Origin: a virus
Taxonomy: Duplodnaviria; Heunggongvirae; Uroviricota; Caudoviricetes
Virus record (IMG/VR): IMGVR_UViG_2706794696_000015
Length of the DNA stretch: 42,521 nt
Strand: one strand, 5' to 3'
The position numbers were made by a program, and so were the translations under genes. The notes under the pieces are model-generated. The model searched no databases, was not told the origin of the DNA, and saw nothing but the letters and a program-made list of their open reading frames with translations. The first letter of the stretch is position 1. Every line of letters begins with the position of its first letter. Positions 1-14,695 of the stretch are shown here, one piece after another.

Positions 1-573
1 ATGTTTTGCGAAGAAAAAGTAGCTCAAATGGCTGCATACCTACTTCTTAAGCGAGGTGGGCGCATGGCATATCTGAAATTGATGAAGCTGCTCTATCTGT
101 CTAACCGCAAGTCGATTTTGAAGCATGGCAGGATGATCGGCGAAGATAGCCTTTACTCTATGAAATTTGGTCCAGTCATGTCGAATACGCTGAACTTGAT
201 TCGTGGTAAGGCTGAAGGTATTGGTGACTACTGGTACAACCTGATAGAGACGAACGGGCATGATGTGTTGTTGCGTTCAGATCCGAGGGAAATGGATGCA
301 GACGAGGTCTTTGATGAGTTGAGCCGTGCAGATATCCGGATTTTAGATGAAATCTATTCTCTGTATGGGCATATGAACCGATTTGATCTCGCAAACATGA
401 CGCATTTAGAAAGCGTTTGTCCAGAGTGGCACAATCCTGGCAATTCTCGTAAGCCTATAGACCTGAAAGAAATGCTGATCAGTGAGGGTAAAAGCGAGGA
501 TGAGGCTAATCGTATAATTGGCAAAATGGAAGAATCTCAGAAACTTAAGGAATTTTCTTTGCAATTATCATGA
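1..573 (+). CDS. Panacea (DUF4065) domain protein, putative antitoxin-type component
   Basis: 190 aa ORF; N-terminal motifs LKLMKLLYL and MKFGPVMSNTLNLIR match the DUF4065/GepA pattern as I recall it; stop overlaps next start (ATGA at 570-573). Confidence 0.55.
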   Translation: MFCEEKVAQMAAYLLLKRGGRMAYLKLMKLLYLSNRKSILKHGRMIGEDSLYSMKFGPVMSNTLNLIRGKAEGIGDYWYNLIETNGHDVLLRSDPREMDADEVFDELSRADIRILDEIYSLYGHMNRFDLANMTHLESVCPEWHNPGNSRKPIDLKEMLISEGKSEDEANRIIGKMEESQKLKEFSLQLS

Positions 574-4477: not shown

Positions 4478-5152
4478 TTAGGCCTTTATTATGTATCTTC
4501 TTGGTTTTCCTGAGAAAATCACTGTACCAATTATAGAGCAATTACCGTTAATCTTAATGTAAGGCTCAGGCCAGTTTGGGTTTAATGCTTTGAGATAACG
4601 CTGTGTTCCATCTTCTATCAACCGCTTGAAGGTGGTTTCGCCTGTATCGTGCATCAATGCAATAACGTCGTCACCGTGGCAGGCAGGGACTTCAGGATCA
4701 ACAAAAATCATGTCTCCCGGGCGGTACTCATCAATCATTGAATCACCAATCACCCGCAAGATATAAGTCATTTCGCCACAGGGTACAGGGCAGGGATAAG
4801 TTTCTGCTGTGCTCAAATCAACCTCAGAATAGCCAACTTCTTTCCATGCTCCGGCCTGTACCCATGATATGACAGGGACTAACGTTATTTGTTTGTTAGT
4901 GATTGAAACGTCAGGTTTTTTTGTGATGTTCGTTGTCTGGTGTTCTTGATCAAGCCATCCGACAGGCAGGTCGAAACATTTTTCGATGTGCCGTGCCATG
5001 CTGTCACCGATATTTTTAGTTGCACCATCTCCCATAAACCTGCTGGTCTGGGTTGGCTCGCGATCAATCATGGTGGCAAAGGAAGAATTCCCGCCAACAC
5101 CATCTCTCAGTTTTCTGGCGTTAGACCGCCGGATGTCATGGACTGTTTTCAT
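4478..5152 (-). CDS. cI: CI-like phage repressor (HTH + S24 LexA-type autopeptidase domain)
   Basis: 224 aa; C-terminal domain has the GDSM serine motif and a downstream lysine as in lambda CI/LexA; divergent from a Cro-like gene across an operator-rich intergenic region. Confidence 0.85.
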   Translation of the reverse strand: MKTVHDIRRSNARKLRDGVGGNSSFATMIDREPTQTSRFMGDGATKNIGDSMARHIEKCFDLPVGWLDQEHQTTNITKKPDVSITNKQITLVPVISWVQAGAWKEVGYSEVDLSTAETYPCPVPCGEMTYILRVIGDSMIDEYRPGDMIFVDPEVPACHGDDVIALMHDTGETTFKRLIEDGTQRYLKALNPNWPEPYIKINGNCSIIGTVIFSGKPRRYIIKA

Positions 5153-5168
5153 AAAGAAATTAAAACCT

Positions 5169-5238
5169 TTGTACCGATAAGGTACAAGTATCTTGAAGGT
5201 TCATCTCAATCATGTAATATGTATACCGGAGGTACATA
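5169..5238. promoter_or_regulatory. cI-cro operator/promoter region
   Basis: Palindrome TTGTACC-GATAA-GGTACAA at 5169-5187; imperfect TGTATACC-GGA-GGTACATA at 5220-5238; TTGAAG-16 nt-TAATAT promoter-like element in between, oriented toward cro. Confidence 0.5.
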
Positions 5239-5242
5239 TTGT

Positions 5243-5474: not shown

Positions 5475-6038
5475 ATGAGGCTAACCGTGGGTAAGCATCA
5501 CTGGAAAGTAGAAAAACAGCCTGAGTGGTACGTGAAAGCTGTCAGAAAAACTATCGCGGCGTTGCCGGGGGGTTACGCTGAAGCTGCTGAGTGGCTGGAT
5601 GTAACAGAGAACGCTTTATTCAACCGCCTTCGTGCAGATGGCGATCAGATTTTCCCGCTGGGATGGGCAATGATTTTACAGCGCGCGGCTGGCACTCACT
5701 ACATTGCGGATGCTGTCGCACAGTCTGCTGGTGGGGTGTTTGTATCGCTTCCTGAAATTGAGGAAGTAGAGAACGCCGATATAAACCAGCGCCTGCTGGA
5801 AGTCATCGAACAGATCGGGAGTTACTCAAAGCAGATTCGTTCGGCAATCGAAGATGGGGTAGTGGAGCCACACGAGCAGACAGCAATTAATGATGAGTTG
5901 TATCTGTCAATTTCGAAGCTCCAGGAGCATGCAGCACTGGTCTACAAAATCTTTTGCGCTCCAGAAAAGAGTGACGCCCGCGAGTGTGCAGCTCCGGGCG
6001 TCGTGGCGTTTTGTGTCTGTGGAGAAACTAACGCATGA
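5475..6038 (+). CDS. CII-like regulatory protein (phage 186 CII/CP76-like, tentative)
   Basis: 187 aa ORF immediately after cro; alternative GTG start at 5496; family assignment is weak. Confidence 0.4.
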   Translation: MRLTVGKHHWKVEKQPEWYVKAVRKTIAALPGGYAEAAEWLDVTENALFNRLRADGDQIFPLGWAMILQRAAGTHYIADAVAQSAGGVFVSLPEIEEVENADINQRLLEVIEQIGSYSKQIRSAIEDGVVEPHEQTAINDELYLSISKLQEHAALVYKIFCAPEKSDARECAAPGVVAFCVCGETNA

Positions 6039-6871
6039 ACAGTTTAACGGCAAATAACCGTTTGTCGCAACAGCTGGTGGTCAGCGTCGCTGAACACCTG
6101 TTGTTACGGCATGAATGCAGATTACCAAATCACCTGGCTGTAAGTAACCACAGAGAACTTTACCTGACTGTGGGGGGCGAGTTGTGCAGGAACTTAACCG
6201 CTGGTTTCGTGACGGAAGAGGACTTTATGTTCATGTTATTCGTTGGGAGCCAGAAACACAGCGCGTTATCTATCTTCGCAAAGACTACCCGCATGAGTGC
6301 TTTAGTCCTTTGTGGAAATTCAGGCGTGATTTTGTTGAGTGTGAAGGACCACCAGCACATTGATTCTGCCATTCCGGGACGTTACACTGTTCAGGCACCT
6401 TATAAAGCGGGTGCCGGGATTGGCGTCCTGGAATTGATCAAGGCGATATATGACGCGCCAGCGTCTTTTTTATCGTCCGCATTTGCTCACATCAAAGTTA
6501 TGGTGGGCTGGGCGGGGGCATCGAAAGATGCGCCGGTTTCCTTGATCACCGGTTACGCCAACCCCGTTCAGTTCACCACCAGCGAAATTGGCGTTTCCGG
6601 TGGTGGAAGTATTTCACCGATCAAGGAGGCTGCCATCATGGCTACTGTCCCAGCCCTCACTCGTCTGAATGATGAAGACTTACATAAACTCAGTTATGTA
6701 ACAACTGCACTACGTGCTCTGCGCAAGGTAACTCTTTCGGATCCGCAGGCACATCAGGTTCTGGTAGAAACCCTTCTTAACTTGCAAGCTGAACGTATTC
6801 GTCTGGCGGATAAGGCTAATTTTCATATTCACCGTCTCCTGAATATCAGCGGAGGGCATCGTCATGCTTAA
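6035..6871 (+). CDS. Hypothetical protein; possibly a composite of smaller genes
   Basis: 278 aa ORF; contains an internal ATG at 6638 with a strong AAGGAGG RBS (77 aa product) and a protein-like 59 aa alternative-frame ORF at 6184..6363. Confidence 0.35.
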   Translation: MNSLTANNRLSQQLVVSVAEHLLLRHECRLPNHLAVSNHRELYLTVGGELCRNLTAGFVTEEDFMFMLFVGSQKHSALSIFAKTTRMSALVLCGNSGVILLSVKDHQHIDSAIPGRYTVQAPYKAGAGIGVLELIKAIYDAPASFLSSAFAHIKVMVGWAGASKDAPVSLITGYANPVQFTTSEIGVSGGGSISPIKEAAIMATVPALTRLNDEDLHKLSYVTTALRALRKVTLSDPQAHQVLVETLLNLQAERIRLADKANFHIHRLLNISGGHRHA

Positions 6872-7100
6872 TCCGTTGATCCTCAATATTTGCCGTTTGC
6901 TTCAGCGTAAAAAAATATCAATTCCTACAGTTGGGCAGTGGTACACCACGCCTGCAGGGCATGTTCTACGTGTTAGCCTGGTTGACCGTGAATGCCAGAA
7001 GGTGATTTGTGAACCGCTGGGCCGTAATTACCGCGTCAGTATGCCGCTTATAGCCTTTCGCTCCGGAAAAAACATGAAGCATCTCGGAGGTGCAGCATGA
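6864..7100 (+). CDS. Hypothetical small protein
   Basis: 78 aa ORF with start overlapping the upstream stop. Confidence 0.4.
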   Translation: MLNPLILNICRLLQRKKISIPTVGQWYTTPAGHVLRVSLVDRECQKVICEPLGRNYRVSMPLIAFRSGKNMKHLGGAA

Positions 7101-7915
7101 GTATGGAGCTGATGGTTAAAGCGATGAAAATTCGAGTGGGTAATCCATTGCGAAAACTGGTTCTGATCAAGCTGGCTGATAATGCCAGCGATCAGGGTGA
7201 GTGCTGGCCCAGCTACCAGCATATTGCTGACCAGTGCGAAATTAGCAAACGTTCTGTGATGAATCATATTGCGGCCCTTTGTGAGTCCGGGCTGGTAAAA
7301 AAAGTCACCCGGAAAGGTGAAAAAGGTAACTCAAGTAATATCTATCTCCTTCATCTGGATGGTGCAGGAGATTCACTAGGGGGTAGTGCAAATAATTCAC
7401 TATCTGGTGCAGCAAATTCACCAGGTAGTGCAGGAGTTGCACCAGGGGGTAGTGCAGGAGATTCACCCAGAACCAGTCACTCTTTTGAACCAGTCAAAGA
7501 ACCAGTCAATGAACCAATAGCTGTTGGTGCATCAGTTGATGAGTCCGTGCGAGTTCGTTCAAACCGACCGGAATACTCTCCGGAGTTTGAGCAGGCATGG
7601 CTGGCATATCCCAAACGTGCTGGTGGCAATTCAAAATCTGCAGCCTTCAAAGCCTGGAAAGCCCGTTTGAATGAGGGAGTAAACCCCGAAACCATGCTGG
7701 AAGGTGTGAAACGCTACGCGGGATGGGTATCTGCGATGGGTAACAGCGGCACACAATTTGTGAAACAGGCTGTCACGTTCTTTGGTCCGGATCGTCATTT
7801 CGAAGAATTCTGGGAAGTTCCTGCGGTATCTGCAGCCAGACGCGAGGACCCGTACTTCAAAGCCAGTTACGACAACGTGGACTACAGCCAGATCCCGGCA
7901 GGATTCAGGGGGTGA
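7097..7915 (+). CDS. Replication initiator, lambda O-like (N-terminal HTH, low-complexity linker)
   Basis: 272 aa; GGAGGTG RBS; N-terminal HTH-like segment; Gly/Ser-rich linker encoded by iteron-like direct DNA repeats, as in lambda O. Confidence 0.6.
   Translation: MSMELMVKAMKIRVGNPLRKLVLIKLADNASDQGECWPSYQHIADQCEISKRSVMNHIAALCESGLVKKVTRKGEKGNSSNIYLLHLDGAGDSLGGSANNSLSGAANSPGSAGVAPGGSAGDSPRTSHSFEPVKEPVNEPIAVGASVDESVRVRSNRPEYSPEFEQAWLAYPKRAGGNSKSAAFKAWKARLNEGVNPETMLEGVKRYAGWVSAMGNSGTQFVKQAVTFFGPDRHFEEFWEVPAVSAARREDPYFKASYDNVDYSQIPAGFRG
7361..7520. repeat. Iteron-like direct repeats inside the O-like gene (candidate replication origin)
   Basis: About five ~22 bp units of the GGTGCAGGAGATTCAC / GTAGTGCA type (7361-7466) followed by four ACCAGTCA-type units (7471-7520). 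Confidence 0.5.
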
Positions 7916-7917
7916 TC

Positions 7918-8406
7918 ATGAGTCTTTTGAATGAAGTTCAGAAATTCATTGAAGCCCATCCGGGGTGTACTTCCGGAGACATTGCGGATGCTTTTGCAGG
8001 TTACTCACGGCAGCGCGTTCTGCAGTCAGCAAGCAAGTTACGTCAGAGTGGGCGTGTGGCTCACCGTTATGAAGGAGATACACGCAGACATTTCCCACGC
8101 CTGACTGAGAGAGCGCAGGAGCCGGAACCACAACCAGTTCGTGAAACCAGACCTGTGCGCAATTTCTATGTCGGCACTAACGATCCCCGGGTGATTTTGT
8201 GCCTGACCCGCCAGGCGGAAGAACTGGAGTCCAGGGGCTTATACCGTCGTGCTGCAACGGTGTGGATGGCGGCATTCCGTGAAAGCCACTCCCAGCCAGA
8301 ACGAAACAATTTTCTGGCGCGTCGTGAGCGGTGCTTACGGAAAAGCAGCAAGCGCGCTGCATCGGGTGAAGAGTGGTATCTGTCAGGGAATTACGTGGGG
8401 GCTTAA
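7918..8406 (+). CDS. PerC-like transcriptional regulator (tentative)
   Basis: C-terminal LESRGLYRRAATVWMA...RRERCL resembles the PerC/Pch motif as I recall it; AGGGGG RBS before ATG 7918 (GTG 7912 alternative). Confidence 0.4.
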   Translation: MSLLNEVQKFIEAHPGCTSGDIADAFAGYSRQRVLQSASKLRQSGRVAHRYEGDTRRHFPRLTERAQEPEPQPVRETRPVRNFYVGTNDPRVILCLTRQAEELESRGLYRRAATVWMAAFRESHSQPERNNFLARRERCLRKSSKRAASGEEWYLSGNYVGA

Positions 8407-9059
8407 TGAGTAATAAATATTGCCAGGCGCTGGTGGAGCTGCGGAACAAACCAGCCCATGAACTGAAGGAAGTGGGCGATCAGTGGCGCACGCCGGATAA
8501 CATTTTCTGGGGAATTAACACCCTGTTTGGCCCGTTTGTTCTGGATCTGTTCACTGATGGTGATAACGCCAAATGTGCCGCTTATTACACTGCGGAAGAC
8601 AACGCGCTGGCGCATGACTGGTCTGAACGTCTTGCGGAGCTTAAAGGTGCTGCCTTTGGTAATCCCCCGTACAGCCGCGCCAGTCAGCATGAAGGGCAAT
8701 ACATCACCGGCATGCGTTACATCATGAAACATGCCAGTGCCATGCGTGATAAGGGCGGACGCTATGTTTTCCTGATCAAAGCTGCCACCAGCGAAGTGTG
8801 GTGGCCGGAAGATGCAGATCATATTGCTTTTATTCGCGGGCGTATTGGTTTTGAACTGCCTGCCTGGTTTATCCCGAAGGACGAGAAGCAGGTGCCGACA
8901 GGCGCTTTCTTCGCTGGTGCTATTGCTGTTTTCGACAAGACCTGGAAGGGACCGGCAATCAGCTACATCGGGCGCGATGAACTTGAGGCATGTGGTGAGG
9001 CGTTTCTGGCGCAGGTTCGCCAGCAGGCGGAAAAACTGGTCAGGGAGATGGCGGCATGA
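8406..9059 (+). CDS. Phage Dam-like N6-adenine DNA methyltransferase
   Basis: NPPY catalytic motif (GNPPYSRA); start overlaps upstream stop (TAATG). Confidence 0.8.
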   Translation: MSNKYCQALVELRNKPAHELKEVGDQWRTPDNIFWGINTLFGPFVLDLFTDGDNAKCAAYYTAEDNALAHDWSERLAELKGAAFGNPPYSRASQHEGQYITGMRYIMKHASAMRDKGGRYVFLIKAATSEVWWPEDADHIAFIRGRIGFELPAWFIPKDEKQVPTGAFFAGAIAVFDKTWKGPAISYIGRDELEACGEAFLAQVRQQAEKLVREMAA

Positions 9060-9382
9060 CGACGTTAACTCAATGCCAGCAGCAGGTGCTGGATATGCTG
9101 ATTTCTTACCAGAAAGAACGTGGCTTCCCGCCAACCAATCAGGAGGTGGCAACCATGCTGGGATACCGTTCAGTGAATGCAGCGGTGGAACATCTTCGCG
9201 CACTGGAGAAAAAAGGCGTCATCACGATAAAGCGTGGCATGGCCCGGGGTATCACTCTTCATACCGCGGTGAAGGACGACGACAGCGAGGCGGTCGGGAT
9301 TATCCGCTCACTGCTTGCCGGTGAGGAAAACGCCAGGCTGCGTGCAACCCACTGGTTACATGAGAGAGGCCTGAAAGTATGA
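9056..9382 (+). CDS. LexA N-terminal DNA-binding-domain homologue lacking the peptidase domain
   Basis: 108 aa; RSVNAAVEHLRALEKKGVI aligns with LexA RSPNAAEEHLKALARKGVI; no S24 domain follows. Confidence 0.6.
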   Translation: MTTLTQCQQQVLDMLISYQKERGFPPTNQEVATMLGYRSVNAAVEHLRALEKKGVITIKRGMARGITLHTAVKDDDSEAVGIIRSLLAGEENARLRATHWLHERGLKV

Positions 9383-9768
9383 AGCTGATCCTGCCTTTCC
9401 CGCCCAGCGTGAACACGTACTGGCGACACCCCAACAAAGGGGCATTTGCTGGTAAGAGCCTGATAAGCGCGGCGGGGCGAAAATTTCAGAGCGCGGCGTG
9501 CGCAGCAATAGTTGAGCAGTTACGTCGTCTGCCAAAACCAACGTCGGCACCTGCTTCAGTGGAGATCGTGTTGTTTCCTCCGGATAACCGGATCCGCGAT
9601 CTGGACAACTATAACAAGGCGCTGTTTGACGCCCTGACCCACGCGGGGGTGTGGGAAGACGACAGCCAGGTGAAAAGAATGCTGGTGGAGTGGGGACCGG
9701 TTATCCAGAAAGGGAAGGTCGAGATCACTATCAGTAAGTATGAGAAACCGGCGGGTGCAGCCGCCTGA
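9379..9768 (+). CDS. rusA: RusA-family Holliday junction resolvase
   Basis: 129 aa; LPFPPSVNTYW ... DLDNYNKALFDAL ... EDDSQV motifs. Confidence 0.85.
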   Translation: MKLILPFPPSVNTYWRHPNKGAFAGKSLISAAGRKFQSAACAAIVEQLRRLPKPTSAPASVEIVLFPPDNRIRDLDNYNKALFDALTHAGVWEDDSQVKRMLVEWGPVIQKGKVEITISKYEKPAGAAA

Positions 9769-10598: not shown

Positions 10599-11594
10599 GT
10601 GACCGTGAGAGCACTACTGACCCCTGAAATTGCCCCGCGTATGGGGATCGTATTGTTCAGGCCAGGTTCAGAGCTGATGCCCCTGTTTATGCAGGGGCGT
10701 GTTCTGCTGGAGCCTGAGCCGGAACGTTATTCATCTTTCGCCAGTGGTGCCGTTCCGGCGGCATCACAACCGCTGGCGGATGATCCTGCCGTTCGGGCCG
10801 TGTTCCGCAATGAGGCAGTGATCCGTCGTGCTGGTGGCGTGGAATGTCTTGAAAGCTGGTTACTTCGTGAAAAAGGCTGCCAGTGGCCTCATTCCGACTG
10901 GCACAGCGAGAACATGACCACAATGCGACACGCTCCGGGCGCAATCCGTCTGTGCTGGCACTGCGATAACCAGCTGCGCGATCAGTTCACGGAACGGCTG
11001 GAATCAATGGCAACGGATAACTGTGCCCGCTGGGTGTTGTCTGTTGTGCGTCGGGATCTCGGTTTTGATGATAGTCACGTTGTGACAATGCCGGAACTGT
11101 GCTGGTGGCTGATTCGTAATGACCTGGCGGATGCCTTACCGGAAAGTGCAGCCCGTAAGGCACTGAGATTACCAAAGCCTGTTGTGCCGTCTGTCACCCG
11201 GGAAAGTGACCTTGTGCCTTCGGTTCCTGCCACCAGCATCATCCAGGATAAGGCAAAAAAGGTGCTGGCGCTGAAAGTGGATCCGGAGTCGCCGGAGTCT
11301 TTTATGTTACGCCCAAAACGCCGCCGCTGGGTTAATGAAAAGTACACGCGCTGGGTTAAGACACAGCCGTGTGCATGTTGTGGAAAGCCTGCTGATGATC
11401 CCCACCACCTGATAGGCCACGGTCAGGGTGGAATGGGTACAAAAGCGCATGACCTCTTTGTGTTGCCTTTGTGCAGAAAGCATCACGACGAGCTGCATGC
11501 GGATACCGTGGCATTTGAAGAGAAGTATGGCTCCCAGCTGGAGCTGATATTTCGTTTTATCGATCGTGCGCTGGCAATTGGCGTATTGGCGTAA
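10599..11594 (+). CDS. DUF968-type protein with C-terminal HNH-like Cys/His motif
   Basis: 331 aa, GTG start; C-terminal CACCGK...HHLIGHG...CRKHHDELH. Confidence 0.55.
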   Translation: MTVRALLTPEIAPRMGIVLFRPGSELMPLFMQGRVLLEPEPERYSSFASGAVPAASQPLADDPAVRAVFRNEAVIRRAGGVECLESWLLREKGCQWPHSDWHSENMTTMRHAPGAIRLCWHCDNQLRDQFTERLESMATDNCARWVLSVVRRDLGFDDSHVVTMPELCWWLIRNDLADALPESAARKALRLPKPVVPSVTRESDLVPSVPATSIIQDKAKKVLALKVDPESPESFMLRPKRRRWVNEKYTRWVKTQPCACCGKPADDPHHLIGHGQGGMGTKAHDLFVLPLCRKHHDELHADTVAFEEKYGSQLELIFRFIDRALAIGVLA

Positions 11595-11607
11595 GTGGAG
11601 AACGAGC

Positions 11608-12360
11608 ATGAACCTTGAAGCCTTACCAAAATATTACTCCCCAAAATCTCCAAAATTGAGCGATGACGCACCGGCGACAGGCTCAGGTGGTTTAACGATT
11701 ACGGATGTGATGGCTGCGCAGGGGATGGTGCAGTCGAAAGCACCGCTTGGGTTTGCCTTATTCCTGGCAAAAGTTGGTGTTCAGGATCCTCAATTTGCGA
11801 TTGAAGGTCTGCTCAATTACGCGATGGCACTGGATAACCCGACATTGAACAAATTGAGTGAAGAAACCCGGTTACAGATCATCCCTTACCTTGTGAATTT
11901 TGCCTTTGCTGATTATTCCAGGTCTGCGGCAAGTAAGGCTCGCTGTGAGCATTGTGCTGGTACTGGATTTCATAATGTATTGCGCGAAGTGGTGAAACAC
12001 TCCAGAAGCGGGGAATCTGTTATCAAGGAAGAGTGGGTGAAGGAACTATGTCAGCATTGCCATGGTAAGGGAGAAGTCAGCACAGCGTGCAGAGGGTGTA
12101 AGGGTAAAGGTATTGTCCTGGATGAAAAAAGAACCCGGCTTCATGGTGTGCCTGTTTATAAGATTTGTGGGCGTTGCAATGGCAACCGGTTTAGCCGTTT
12201 ACCAACCACACTGGCGCGGCATCATGTCCAGAAACTGGTACCGGACCTGACGGATTATCAGTGGTACAAAGGATATGCAGACGTTATTAATAAACTGGTT
12301 ACAAAGTGCTGGCAGGAAGAAGCGTATGCTGAATCGCAATTGAGAAAAGTGACAAGATAG
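11608..12360 (+). CDS. Q: Late-gene antiterminator Q (phage 82/21-type, zinc-finger)
   Basis: CxxCxGxG and CxxC motifs; followed by a promoter plus short terminated leader typical of PR'/tR'. Confidence 0.7.
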   Translation: MNLEALPKYYSPKSPKLSDDAPATGSGGLTITDVMAAQGMVQSKAPLGFALFLAKVGVQDPQFAIEGLLNYAMALDNPTLNKLSEETRLQIIPYLVNFAFADYSRSAASKARCEHCAGTGFHNVLREVVKHSRSGESVIKEEWVKELCQHCHGKGEVSTACRGCKGKGIVLDEKRTRLHGVPVYKICGRCNGNRFSRLPTTLARHHVQKLVPDLTDYQWYKGYADVINKLVTKCWQEEAYAESQLRKVTR

Positions 12361-12463: not shown

Positions 12464-12490
12464 AAAAACCCGCCGCTGAGCGGGTTTTTT
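12464..12490 (+). terminator. tR'-like rho-independent terminator (copy 1)
   Basis: AAACCCGC-CGCTGA-GCGGGTTT hairpin plus T6. Confidence 0.7.
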
Positions 12491-12639
12491 GTGCCTGATG
12501 TCTCATGAAACTATGAAATGGATTGGTGCGTTAAACATTTTTTCTTATTATCTTTTAGATTTTGGAGAGATGGTTAACGTCTGTATTCCAGAAACTCGAT
12601 GGTTATTTAATAAATTAGTTTCAATGATGCTTCTAGGTT

Positions 12640-13065
12640 ATGACTGTAATGAAAAAGGTATTAATAGCAGCGATAGGTTTTTGTTTAGTTGGTTGTGCAG
12701 GTATGAAATTACCTGAGTATTCGCAAGTTAAAGCAAGTCCGTATTATACAGATTGCCGTGCGTTTGCCATGGATGTTTATAAAAATGATGGATACAGCAA
12801 AATTGCGAAAACTACTATCCTTAGCATGGATGATGTGAAAGCTAGATATATTGTGACAGGGTGTGTAGTTGCTATGGGGAAAAACACTGTAGAGGAAATC
12901 AAAGCTGATCTCTCTGCTAAAGGGAGTTCTTTTGGGCTTATCAGTGGAGCTTGTTCTAGTGCGGCATGTCGGGTTGATGTAGAGCAGCAAATGAACGCTT
13001 ATGTACTTGGTAGTTATTATGCTGCAAATAAAAAATTCCCGGATAAAATGAAAGCAGAGTTTTAA
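12640..13065 (+). CDS. Lipoprotein of unknown function (moron)
   Basis: 141 aa; signal peptide with lipobox LVGC; AT-rich gene flanked by two copies of the same terminator. Confidence 0.6.
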   Translation: MTVMKKVLIAAIGFCLVGCAGMKLPEYSQVKASPYYTDCRAFAMDVYKNDGYSKIAKTTILSMDDVKARYIVTGCVVAMGKNTVEEIKADLSAKGSSFGLISGACSSAACRVDVEQQMNAYVLGSYYAANKKFPDKMKAEF

Positions 13066-13142
13066 GCAAACCTTGTTTTCGATTATATGTCGAAGATAAA
13101 TGTTAGTAACGGCATAATAAGTAAATATATAGCTGTGATAGC

Positions 13143-13168
13143 AACCCGCCACTGAGCGGGTTTTTTGT
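13143..13168 (+). terminator. tR'-like rho-independent terminator (copy 2)
   Basis: AACCCGCCACTGAGCGGGTTTTTT, differing from copy 1 by one base in the loop. Confidence 0.7.
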
Positions 13169-13288
13169 ACCCGTAAACTTGGTGCAGTACAGTAAACACG
13201 CTGGTGGTCGTGAATACTGACTTTTTATCTTGCTGGCTTTTTAGACAAGAGTTATTGGTATGTCATGTTAACCAGAAGGGAAAAAGAC

Positions 13289-13642: not shown

Positions 13643-14695
13643 ATGAAAAATACTGTAAAAATAAACAGTGTTGATTTAATCAACGCTGATTGCCTGCATT
13701 TTATTCAGTCCCTGCCTGATGATTCCATTGACCTGATTGTTACCGATCCGCCTTACTTCAAGGTGAAACCCAACGGTTGGGACAATCAGTGGAAAGGGGA
13801 CGAAGATTACCTTAAGTGGCTGGACCACTGTCTGGCCCAGTTCTGGCGGGTGTTGAAACCTGCCGGAAGCCTTTACCTGTTCTGTGGGCATCGCCTGGCA
13901 TCTGATATTGAGATCATGATGCGTGAACGTTTCAACGTGCTTAACCATATCATCTGGGCGAAGCCGTCCGGACGTTGGAATGGGTGTAATAAAGAAAGTC
14001 TGCGCGCATATTTTCCTGCCACAGAGCGCGTTCTGTTTGCTGAACATTACCAGGGGCCATATCGCGGCAAAAGTGACGGCTATGCGGCAAAAGAAAGGGA
14101 ACTCAAACAGCACATAATGGCACCGCTGATATCGTATTTCAGGGATGCTCGTGCCGAACTGGGTATAACGGCAAAACAAATTGCCGAAGCCACAGGTAAG
14201 AAAAATATGGTTTCCCACTGGTTTGGTGCCAGTCAGTGGCAGTTGCCGAATGAGGCTGACTATCGGAAGTTACAGGCACTGTTTTCCCGTATAGCGGCAG
14301 AGAAGTTTCAGGAACAACAACTGGAACAACCACACCACCAGCTGGTGGCATCTTATGATTCACTGAATCGTAAATATTCTGAATTGCTGGATGAGTTTAA
14401 ATCTCTCCGGCGCTATTTCTCCGTATCAGTCTCCGTGCCTTATACCGATGTCTGGATGCATAAACCCGTTCAGTTCTACCCGGGGAAACATCCGTGTGAG
14501 AAACCGGCGGATATGCTCAGGCAAATAATCAATGCCAGTAGTCGACCAGGTGATCTGGTTGCTGATTTTTTTATGGGATCCGGTTCCACAATAAAAGCAG
14601 CAATGGCGCTGGGGCGTCGGGCCTTAGGTGTTGAGCTTGAGTCAGAGCGGTTTAATCAGACAGTGAAAGAGATAAACGAGCTGGTGGGGAAATAA
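13643..14695 (+). CDS. Beta-class amino-DNA methyltransferase (N6A/N4C), no cognate nuclease seen
   Basis: DPPYF catalytic motif near the N-terminus and FxGxG (DFFMGSGST) near the C-terminus. Confidence 0.8.

Follow-up and report, generated by a model that had tools for sequence, protein, structure and literature searches.

Why does a lambdoid prophage carry the DNA-binding domain of LexA apart from the domain through which LexA is cleaved, and which DNA would such a protein bind? The question is raised by one gene of the virus record IMGVR_UViG_2706794696_000015, whose whole stretch of 42,521 nucleotides is called the window below. The window is a lambdoid Escherichia coli prophage, 100% identical over the tested 2.4 kb to strains such as A14. 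The gene lies at 9056-9382, and its product is named LexN here. LexN consists of a LexA-type head joined to a helical tail found only in its own family, and it lacks the peptidase. As to its role, we give slightly less than an even chance to LexN being a RecA-insensitive, early-made, small dimeric repressor at SOS-type operators.

The gene and the parts of its head domain are as follows.

9056..9382, plus strand: LexN, complete coding sequence, 108 residues (open reading frame list; PHROG 362; name coined here)
9056..9259, plus strand: LexA-type winged helix-turn-helix, residues 1-68 (PF01726, AlphaFold2 secondary structure, Foldseek)
9170..9211, plus strand: recognition helix SVNAAVEHLRALEK, residues 39-52 (1lea/3jso alignment, family columns)
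9221..9259, plus strand: beta-hairpin wing, residues 56-68, with Arg64-Gly65-Ile66 invariant as in LexA

The frame agrees in coordinates and strand with the 108-residue frame in which a sequence-only reading had seen a LexA N-terminal winged-helix domain without the autocleavage domain, and RefSeq holds the identical protein as WP_001610361.1. Residues 1-65 covered the whole 65-position Pfam model LexA_DNA_bind (PF01726) with an E-value of 2.1e-19, and the score was 69.5 bits against a cutoff of 23.7. In a phmmer search against PDB sequences, E. coli LexA matched LexN at E ~1e-15, and the stretch around the recognition helix that had been aligned with LexA by eye was recovered (svnaavehlralekkgvi in LexN, spnaaeehlkalarkgvi in LexA). 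The AlphaFold2 model, built from 19 family sequences, had a mean predicted local distance difference test (pLDDT) score of 85.7, and its head comprised helices at 6-22, 28-35 and 40-52 and strands at 56-58 and 66-68. The best Foldseek match of this model was the LexA-DNA crystal structure 3jso, which superposed at 0.9 Å over 68 residues with 50% identity. The winged-helix identity was thus borne out by the profile, the sequence search and the superposition. The alignment to LexA and the structure prediction, which the sequence-only reading had proposed as checks, both placed the head with LexA and not in an unrelated winged-helix family. The similarity of LexN to LexA is far above chance.

The other half of that claim, the missing autocleavage domain, also held. 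Peptidase_S24 (PF00717) gave no match in the Pfam search of the 108-residue protein, and the NCBIfam LexA equivalog TIGR00498 scored LexN at 71.3 bits against a cutoff of 110.95, with only model positions 1-91 of 203 aligned. LexN lies outside the LexA equivalog, having neither the S24 domain with its Ser119/Lys156 dyad nor Glu44. Because the catalytic Ser/Lys domain is missing, LexN is unable to autocleave on RecA filaments. In RefSeq, the protein is named 'LexA family protein', 'LexA family transcriptional regulator' or 'LexA repressor'. The last of these, given to WP_001610361.1 in NZ_CP028760.1, is an over-annotation, since the protein falls below the equivalog cutoff and is without the peptidase.

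The head is followed by a linker and a tail.

9260..9274, plus strand: acidic low-confidence linker, residues 69-73, of varying length among relatives (pLDDT, alignment indels)
9275..9379, plus strand: family-specific tail, residues 74-108, with two amphipathic helices at 74-88 and 93-103

The pLDDT fell below 50 at residues 71-74, and the two tail helices were predicted with a pLDDT of about 90. Relatives of 106-135 residues and 40-52% identity, found by HMMER among 1.8 billion representative proteins, retained the tail. For the comparison of single positions, 16 LexN representatives at no more than 85% identity were drawn from 166 loci. Among these, Ala97 was invariant, Leu101 was present in 15, and the hydrophobic positions 79, 80, 82, 83, 86, 87 and 100 were maintained. 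Searched alone, the tail had no homologue in Pfam or in PDB sequences. We infer that it serves as a dimerisation or partner-binding module. The LexN segment LLAGE (Ala88-Gly89) aligned, with low alignment confidence, with the cleavage-site segment VAAGE of LexA (Ala84-Gly85). Position 88 was Ala in 6 of the 16 representatives and position 89 was Gly in 11, and the segment was predicted to be helical. Cleavage in trans at Ala88-Gly89 was therefore rejected as a conserved feature, the Ala-Gly pair not being conserved. Any cleavage of LexN could only be in trans, the catalytic domain being absent.

The family was then considered for selection and distribution. The ratio of nonsynonymous to synonymous substitution (dN/dS) between LexN and its relatives was 0.05-0.16, and dN of the tail was similar to, or modestly above, that of the head. 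The length was 106-113 residues in most of 78 distinct sequences. Purifying selection acts on the full length of the protein, including the tail. Because dN/dS is low and the tail is conserved, LexN is regarded as a functional two-module protein and not a broken lexA. PHROG 362 ('transcriptional repressor') matched LexN end to end (E=4.3e-59, residues 1-108 against positions 1-106 of 106). The profile was also spanned by mEp390 gp43 and by the homologues P0126 and P0139, the last with about 30 extra N-terminal residues. With this profile match, the two-helix tail and its place upstream of rusA, LexN is a member of PHROG 362.

By tblastn, LexN was found in 61 deposited phages, including SfV (orf42), SfII, SfIV, cdtI, mEp460, 1720a-02 and many Stx2c phages. 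It was 97% identical to SfV orf42, and the mEp390 homologue (gp43) was 47% identical. The 2.4-kb segment with LexN was present at a coverage of at least 80% in at least 1,656 of 5,426 complete E. coli genomes, about a third. The family is real, conserved and already catalogued, and its function is characterised by database names only. This cataloguing, the conserved 35-residue helical tail and the near-obligate linkage to rusA are points beyond the sequence-only reading.

In BFVD, many phage proteins of 65-150 residues had the fold of the LexN head, for instance in mycobacteriophage Wildcat, tectiviruses and uncultured Caudovirales, so that stand-alone phage LexA domains are a catalogued kind. 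In addition, several metagenomic proteins (P0132, P0134, P0146, P0148, P0153, P0157 and others) contained two tandem LexA DNA-binding domains per chain, which is a different route to a 'dimer' without the S24 domain. Membership of LexN in a defence system was discounted, PADLOC having given only a weak CARF3--CARF match (E=3e-4, residues 3-60).

The residues through which LexA contacts DNA have been listed second-hand as Ser39, Asn41, Ala42, Glu44 and Glu45 (PMC3091678). LexN kept four of these five, Ser39, Asn41, Ala42 and Glu45, and had Val in place of Glu44. Among the 16 representatives, Ser39 and Asn41 were invariant, Ala42 was found in 13, and position 45 was acidic in 13. The wing residues Arg64-Gly65-Ile66 were invariant and identical to those of LexA. 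As a control, 77 full-length lexA genes of Vibrio, Photobacterium, Glaciecola, Alteromonas and relatives were taken from a genome scan, and position 40 alternated between Pro and Ala among them. The contact residues of LexN were held although identity within the family falls to about 40%. A fixed target, the host SOS box, fits this conservation despite divergence better than co-evolving phage operators do. Judged from these residues, we read the specificity of LexN as SOS-box-like, possibly with a changed affinity or a changed preference at one base; the residues do not prove that it is identical to that of LexA.

Candidate operators were ranked with an SOS position weight matrix made from 19 E. 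coli boxes and used for ranking only. One strong box was obtained in the 42.5-kb window.

13651..13670, strand not assigned: only strong SOS box of the window, TACTGTAAAAATAAACAGTG, 22.5 bits (training sites 15-28)

The box covers codons 3-9 of the late-region DNA methyltransferase gene at 13643..14695, downstream of Q. It is a candidate operator for host LexA, and possibly for LexN, and it could act as an SOS-controlled internal promoter or as a roadblock. The same methylase box was observed at 6009 in loci L244 and L245, and in phiP27 and Stx2a phages the boxed methylase directly precedes tRNA genes and stx genes. A second CTGT-N8-ACAG in the window, at 6138-6153 in the gap between ymfL and the DUF4222 gene, scored below 10 bits and was taken as chance. 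At least two exact-core matches of CTGT-N8-ACAG occurred in 10 of 100 shuffles.

Pairs of CTGT and ACAG were counted at spacings of 0-20 in inverted, everted and direct orientation in 19 sequences, namely the window and 18 representative loci. CTGT-N8-ACAG occurred 16 times, compared with roughly 1-8 times for each other spacing, and no other orientation or spacing was clearly enriched in these sequences. A de novo palindrome search was also performed with 5- and 6-mer half-sites at spacings of 4-12. The top palindrome was GGTTG-N5-CAACC and the second was ACTGT-N8-ACAGT. The former is not obviously an operator; it looks like one homologous element placed 0.8-3.4 kb upstream of LexN. This element, CTTGTC.GGTTGC-N3-GCAACC.GAC, was found in loci L165, L176, L181, L184, L198, L207, L214, L220 and L222, and may represent a hairpin in RNA, a site of the nut type or a motif of replication genes.

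Further SOS boxes were observed in related loci. In L006, which stands for about 25 related viral loci, the extended palindrome TAATACTGTTTTTACATACAGTATTA at 5540-5570 contained a near-perfect SOS box at position 5546. This palindrome is internal to the reading frame of a CI-like S24 repressor, in relatives with a different immunity region. In L059 (10765-10784), and also in L023 and L072, an SOS box was located in the intergenic region between rusA and the KilA-N gene. The KilA-N gene of the window (RefSeq start 9788) begins 19 nt after rusA, and no SOS box is present there. In the Klebsiella/Enterobacter prophages L084 (5381-5652), L085 and L086, a dinI-like moron was preceded by an SOS box of 28 bits and also had a hairpin resembling a terminator. 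A LexN homologue follows about 350 bp further downstream; its N-terminus is extended by 30 residues, and rusA is missing from its neighbourhood.

From these observations a mechanism can be proposed. The DNA-binding domain of a gammaproteobacterial LexA would have been captured, with the two-helix tail replacing the S24 peptidase/dimerisation domain and supplying dimerisation in its stead. The LexN dimer would bind palindromes of the CTGT type (SOS boxes or sites much like them) via Ser39, Asn41, Ala42, Glu45 and Arg64-Gly65-Ile66. It would be made only after the cleavable CI-like repressor of the phage has been inactivated, or after infection. This timing is suggested by the position of the gene in the delayed-early block.

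4478..5152, minus strand: CI-like S24-type repressor

LexN could then serve as a RecA-insensitive stand-in for LexA, re-closing SOS promoters in lytic growth while host LexA is being cleaved. It might target the SOS genes of the host, genes under LexA control in co-resident elements and the phage's own genes with SOS boxes. The isolated N-terminal fragment of LexA exposes a ClpX degron and is rapidly degraded; it keeps some SOS-box binding and repression, and its removal by ClpXP is needed for SOS induction (PMC10584840). As this isolated fragment binds and represses, a repressor function of LexN is mechanistically reasonable. It is plausible, in view of this and of the residues described above, that LexN sits at operators of the SOS type and escapes the cleavage stimulated by RecA. 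The fuller proposal, in which LexN is a phage-made, RecA-proof LexA replacement that re-represses the SOS regulon early in lytic growth and silences damage responses and LexA-controlled rivals, is put forward only tentatively. The rivals silenced would include the lysis genes of colicin plasmids and co-resident prophages that are induced by an antirepressor-type route, and SOS-boxed genes of the phage itself might be tuned as well.

Several results weigh against LexN being an SOS repressor. Position 44 was never Glu among the 16 representatives (Ala in 8, Thr in 3, Val in 2, Phe in 2, and one other), and Glu44, together with Glu45, was kept in 74 of the 77 genuine gammaproteobacterial LexAs. 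Owing to this family-wide loss of a contact residue, the specificity or affinity of LexN may differ from that of LexA. Moreover, the spacing of the SOS box is set in LexA by the C-terminal dimer, which is missing from LexN. The SOS box at the methylase start was also found in phiP27 and the Stx2a phage Stx2_95, both of which are without LexN, and it was absent from N15; comparison with phiP27 and Stx2_95 gave no co-occurrence of the LexN gene with box 13651-13670. Since the box is shared with these two phages, the SOS boxes are regarded as ordinary host-LexA sites of lambdoid phages rather than as evidence of a LexN target. The strict linkage to rusA is left unexplained by the SOS-repressor model. 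Full-text literature searches returned no functional study of the SfV orf42 / PHROG 362 family. In addition, a phage protein with only a LexA domain can act in another way: GIL01/Bam35 gp6, a truncated LexA homologue of a Bacillus tectivirus that is made early in lytic growth, binds a non-LexA palindrome and activates the late promoter P3 from a site at -35 (PMC6182141). The computations made here do not decisively separate binding to SOS boxes from binding to a private target.

Such a private target is possible but doubtful. LexN would be a phage-specific regulator like gp6, with its own operator in the phage genome, and would time particular phage promoters by activating or repressing them. 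A precedent is gp6, a truncated LexA homologue that binds GaCACAnnTGTGaC at -35 of a late promoter, which it activates (PMC6182141). A shifted preference for half-site or spacing could also follow from the new dimerisation module and from the family-wide absence of Glu44, and in the divergent member P0086 the recognition helix is altered at positions 42-45. On the other hand, the de novo search found no non-SOS palindrome shared in an operator-like manner across the diverse loci near LexN, and N8 alone was enriched among the CTGT/ACAG inverted repeats. The near-invariance of Ala42 beside the invariant Ser39 and Asn41 is without the drift typical of immunity-type repressors. No candidate for a gp6-type activation site at the -35 of a late promoter was found in the LexN phage, and late transcription in this phage is already served by the Q antiterminator.

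11566..12360: Q antiterminator

LexN and gp6 are both phage-encoded LexA DNA-binding domains without the cleavage domain. They differ in that gp6 has 66 residues and no tail, whereas LexN has 108 residues and a tail. The best match of gp6 was PHROG 3502 (E=2e-21), with PHROG 362 at only 3e-05, compared with PHROG 362 as the best match of LexN. Orthology of the two was rejected, because no BLASTP alignment was obtained and they fall into different PHROGs. For the same reasons gp6 is considered to have been captured independently, from a LexA of the Firmicutes. It is the nearest characterised analogue of LexN and the sole characterised phage protein consisting only of a LexA domain.

The linkage to rusA suggests a different function, namely that LexN is an accessory DNA-binding factor in recombination or repair that targets, loads or restrains RusA and is not a transcription factor. 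We consider this unlikely. The neighbours concerned are the following.

8406..9059, plus strand: phage N6-adenine methyltransferase (Pfam Dam, PF05869), variable neighbour (start from RefSeq)
9043..9059, plus strand: coupling of LexN to the upstream gene, GGGAG ribosome-binding site and then ATGA (sequence reading)
9379..9768, plus strand: rusA Holliday-junction resolvase, conserved downstream partner (Pfam RusA)

The LexN start codon shares the ATGA at 9056-9059 with the TGA of the Dam-type methylase, and the LexN stop codon shares the ATGA at 9379-9382 with the ATG of rusA. Shine-Dalgarno-like sequences were read 8 nt 5' of the LexN start (GGGAG, 9043-9047) and 9 nt 5' of the rusA start (GAGG, 9366-9369). 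With overlaps at both ends and intact ribosome-binding sites, the three genes are arranged for translational coupling, as had been proposed from the letters of this stretch.

The two neighbours behaved differently across loci. In each of 80 near-identical viral loci, rusA began at the stop codon of LexN. In 80 diverse viral loci, where LexN was 42-51% identical in most and about 84% identical in three and RusA was 64-92% identical, rusA followed immediately in 65, either overlapping LexN or a few bases away; a single gene intervened in 13, and in the other 2 rusA was not detected. SfV and mEp390 show the same position of LexN upstream of rusA. The gene upstream of LexN belonged to at least nine unrelated families. 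In this slot (8406-9059; loci L164-L243), at least four unrelated DNA methyltransferase types were observed, namely PF05869 Dam, D12-class Dam-like, C5-cytosine-like and N4/N6-like, or else PerC or replication genes. Among the deposited phages, a RusA at least 60% identical was found in 87 records, roughly coinciding with LexN in 61, and more distant RusAs (HK022, mEp235 and others) came without LexN; LexN is thus roughly co-extensive with this RusA clade.

The linkage may simply reflect co-inheritance of a two-gene cassette, or else a common function in recombination and DNA damage. The Klebsiella/Enterobacter homologues in L084-L086 had no rusA within the 12-kb locus, and the conserved surface of LexN is the sequence-specific recognition helix of a repressor. 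RusA itself reportedly needs no partner in E. coli and phage 82 (Mahdi et al., 1996, cited in PMC12711010), and this too speaks against a partner function.

It is quite improbable that LexN acts by protein contacts, with the tail binding a repressor, RecA or ClpX and the head serving as a decoy or scaffold. The tail would suit such a function, being conserved, free of homologues and split from the head by a flexible linker, and small phage proteins that manipulate LexA have a precedent in GIL01 gp7 (PMC6182141). However, conservation within LexN is highest at the contact residues and the wing, which points to selected DNA binding, and no data obtained here suggest a partner protein. Finally, LexN can be aligned with LexA as far as residue 90, with an Ala-Gly opposite the cleavage site, as would be seen in a truncated lexA, but a functionless decaying remnant of a captured lexA is effectively refuted by the dN/dS values, the held length, the tail conserved at 40% identity and the intact ribosome-binding site and coupling.

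An SOS repressor that escapes RecA can be compared with known forms of LexA. E. coli LexA itself (1lea, 1jhh, 3jso) has the homologous winged helix, at about 50% identity and 0.9 Å. LexN differs from it in being without the Ser119/Lys156 domain, in having Val44, in having a hairpin tail in place of the C-terminal domain and in being phage-borne in an early lytic operon. Compared with the N-terminal cleavage fragment of LexA (residues 1-84), LexN is the same domain alone with an extra folded tail. The degron of the LexA fragment is reportedly its new C-terminus (Neher et al., 2003). Because LexN ends in ...ERGLKV after the extra folded tail, a ClpX signal would not be expected in it.

A LexA-type repressor that RecA* cannot inactivate keeps the SOS genes shut. 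The non-inducible LexA alleles (LexA3 Ind-, G85D, S119A) therefore offer a functional analogy for a RecA-proof repressor, and 1jhf and 1jhh were among the PDB matches. The Ind- alleles are full-length dimers with point mutations, whereas the insensitivity of LexN comes from the loss of a whole domain, and any dimerisation would occur by other means. The proteins annotated as 'LexA DNA binding domain protein' in mEp460 and mEp390, together with SfV orf42 and PHROG 362, belong to the same family as LexN and show no real difference from it.

If LexN does act as an SOS repressor, a very common prophage gene could blunt or shorten the SOS response from within. LexN would then be a widespread and unrecognised modifier of SOS output and of cross-induction among prophages. 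It is also carried by Shigella serotype-converting phages and Stx2c phages. Such an effect would matter for the mutagenesis that antibiotics induce, for the rivalry of co-resident prophages and colicin plasmids and for the strength with which Shiga-toxin phages respond to DNA damage. It would also be a natural LexA domain re-engineered with a new dimerisation module, opening the 'measurement' of half-site spacing to experiment. If LexN instead has a private operator or is a partner of RusA, it would be an ordinary accessory regulator, and the main outcome would be the correction of the RefSeq name 'LexA repressor'.

The remaining features of the window have the order of a lambdoid phage. A gene for a Panacea-domain protein opens the window (1-573). 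The CI-like repressor gene is followed by a cro-like gene, a cII/ymfL-like gene and the replication protein.

7097..7915: replication protein

The nin-like block then runs in the order replication, PerC, Dam, LexN, RusA, KilA-N, DUF968 and Q. In the intergenic region between cI and cro (5165-5240), palindromes of the GTACC-N5-GGTAC type, TGTACCGATAAGGTACA and TATACCGGAGGTACA, were present. They are unrelated to SOS boxes and are presumably operators of the CI-like repressor. In A14 the prophage occupies a dusA remnant, and dinF, the gene downstream of host lexA, is only about 3 kb away (L001 1-3448); this nearness to lexA is probably coincidental. Downstream of Q, a lipoprotein moron is followed by the second methyltransferase gene at 13643..14695 and then by the lysis genes. 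The AT-rich lipoprotein gene (12640..13065, PHROG 4748) is flanked by two near-identical terminator hairpins (AACCCGCC.CTGAGCGGGTTTTTTGT) at 12466-12492 and 13142-13169, and it looks like a moron inserted together with a duplicated tR'-type terminator.

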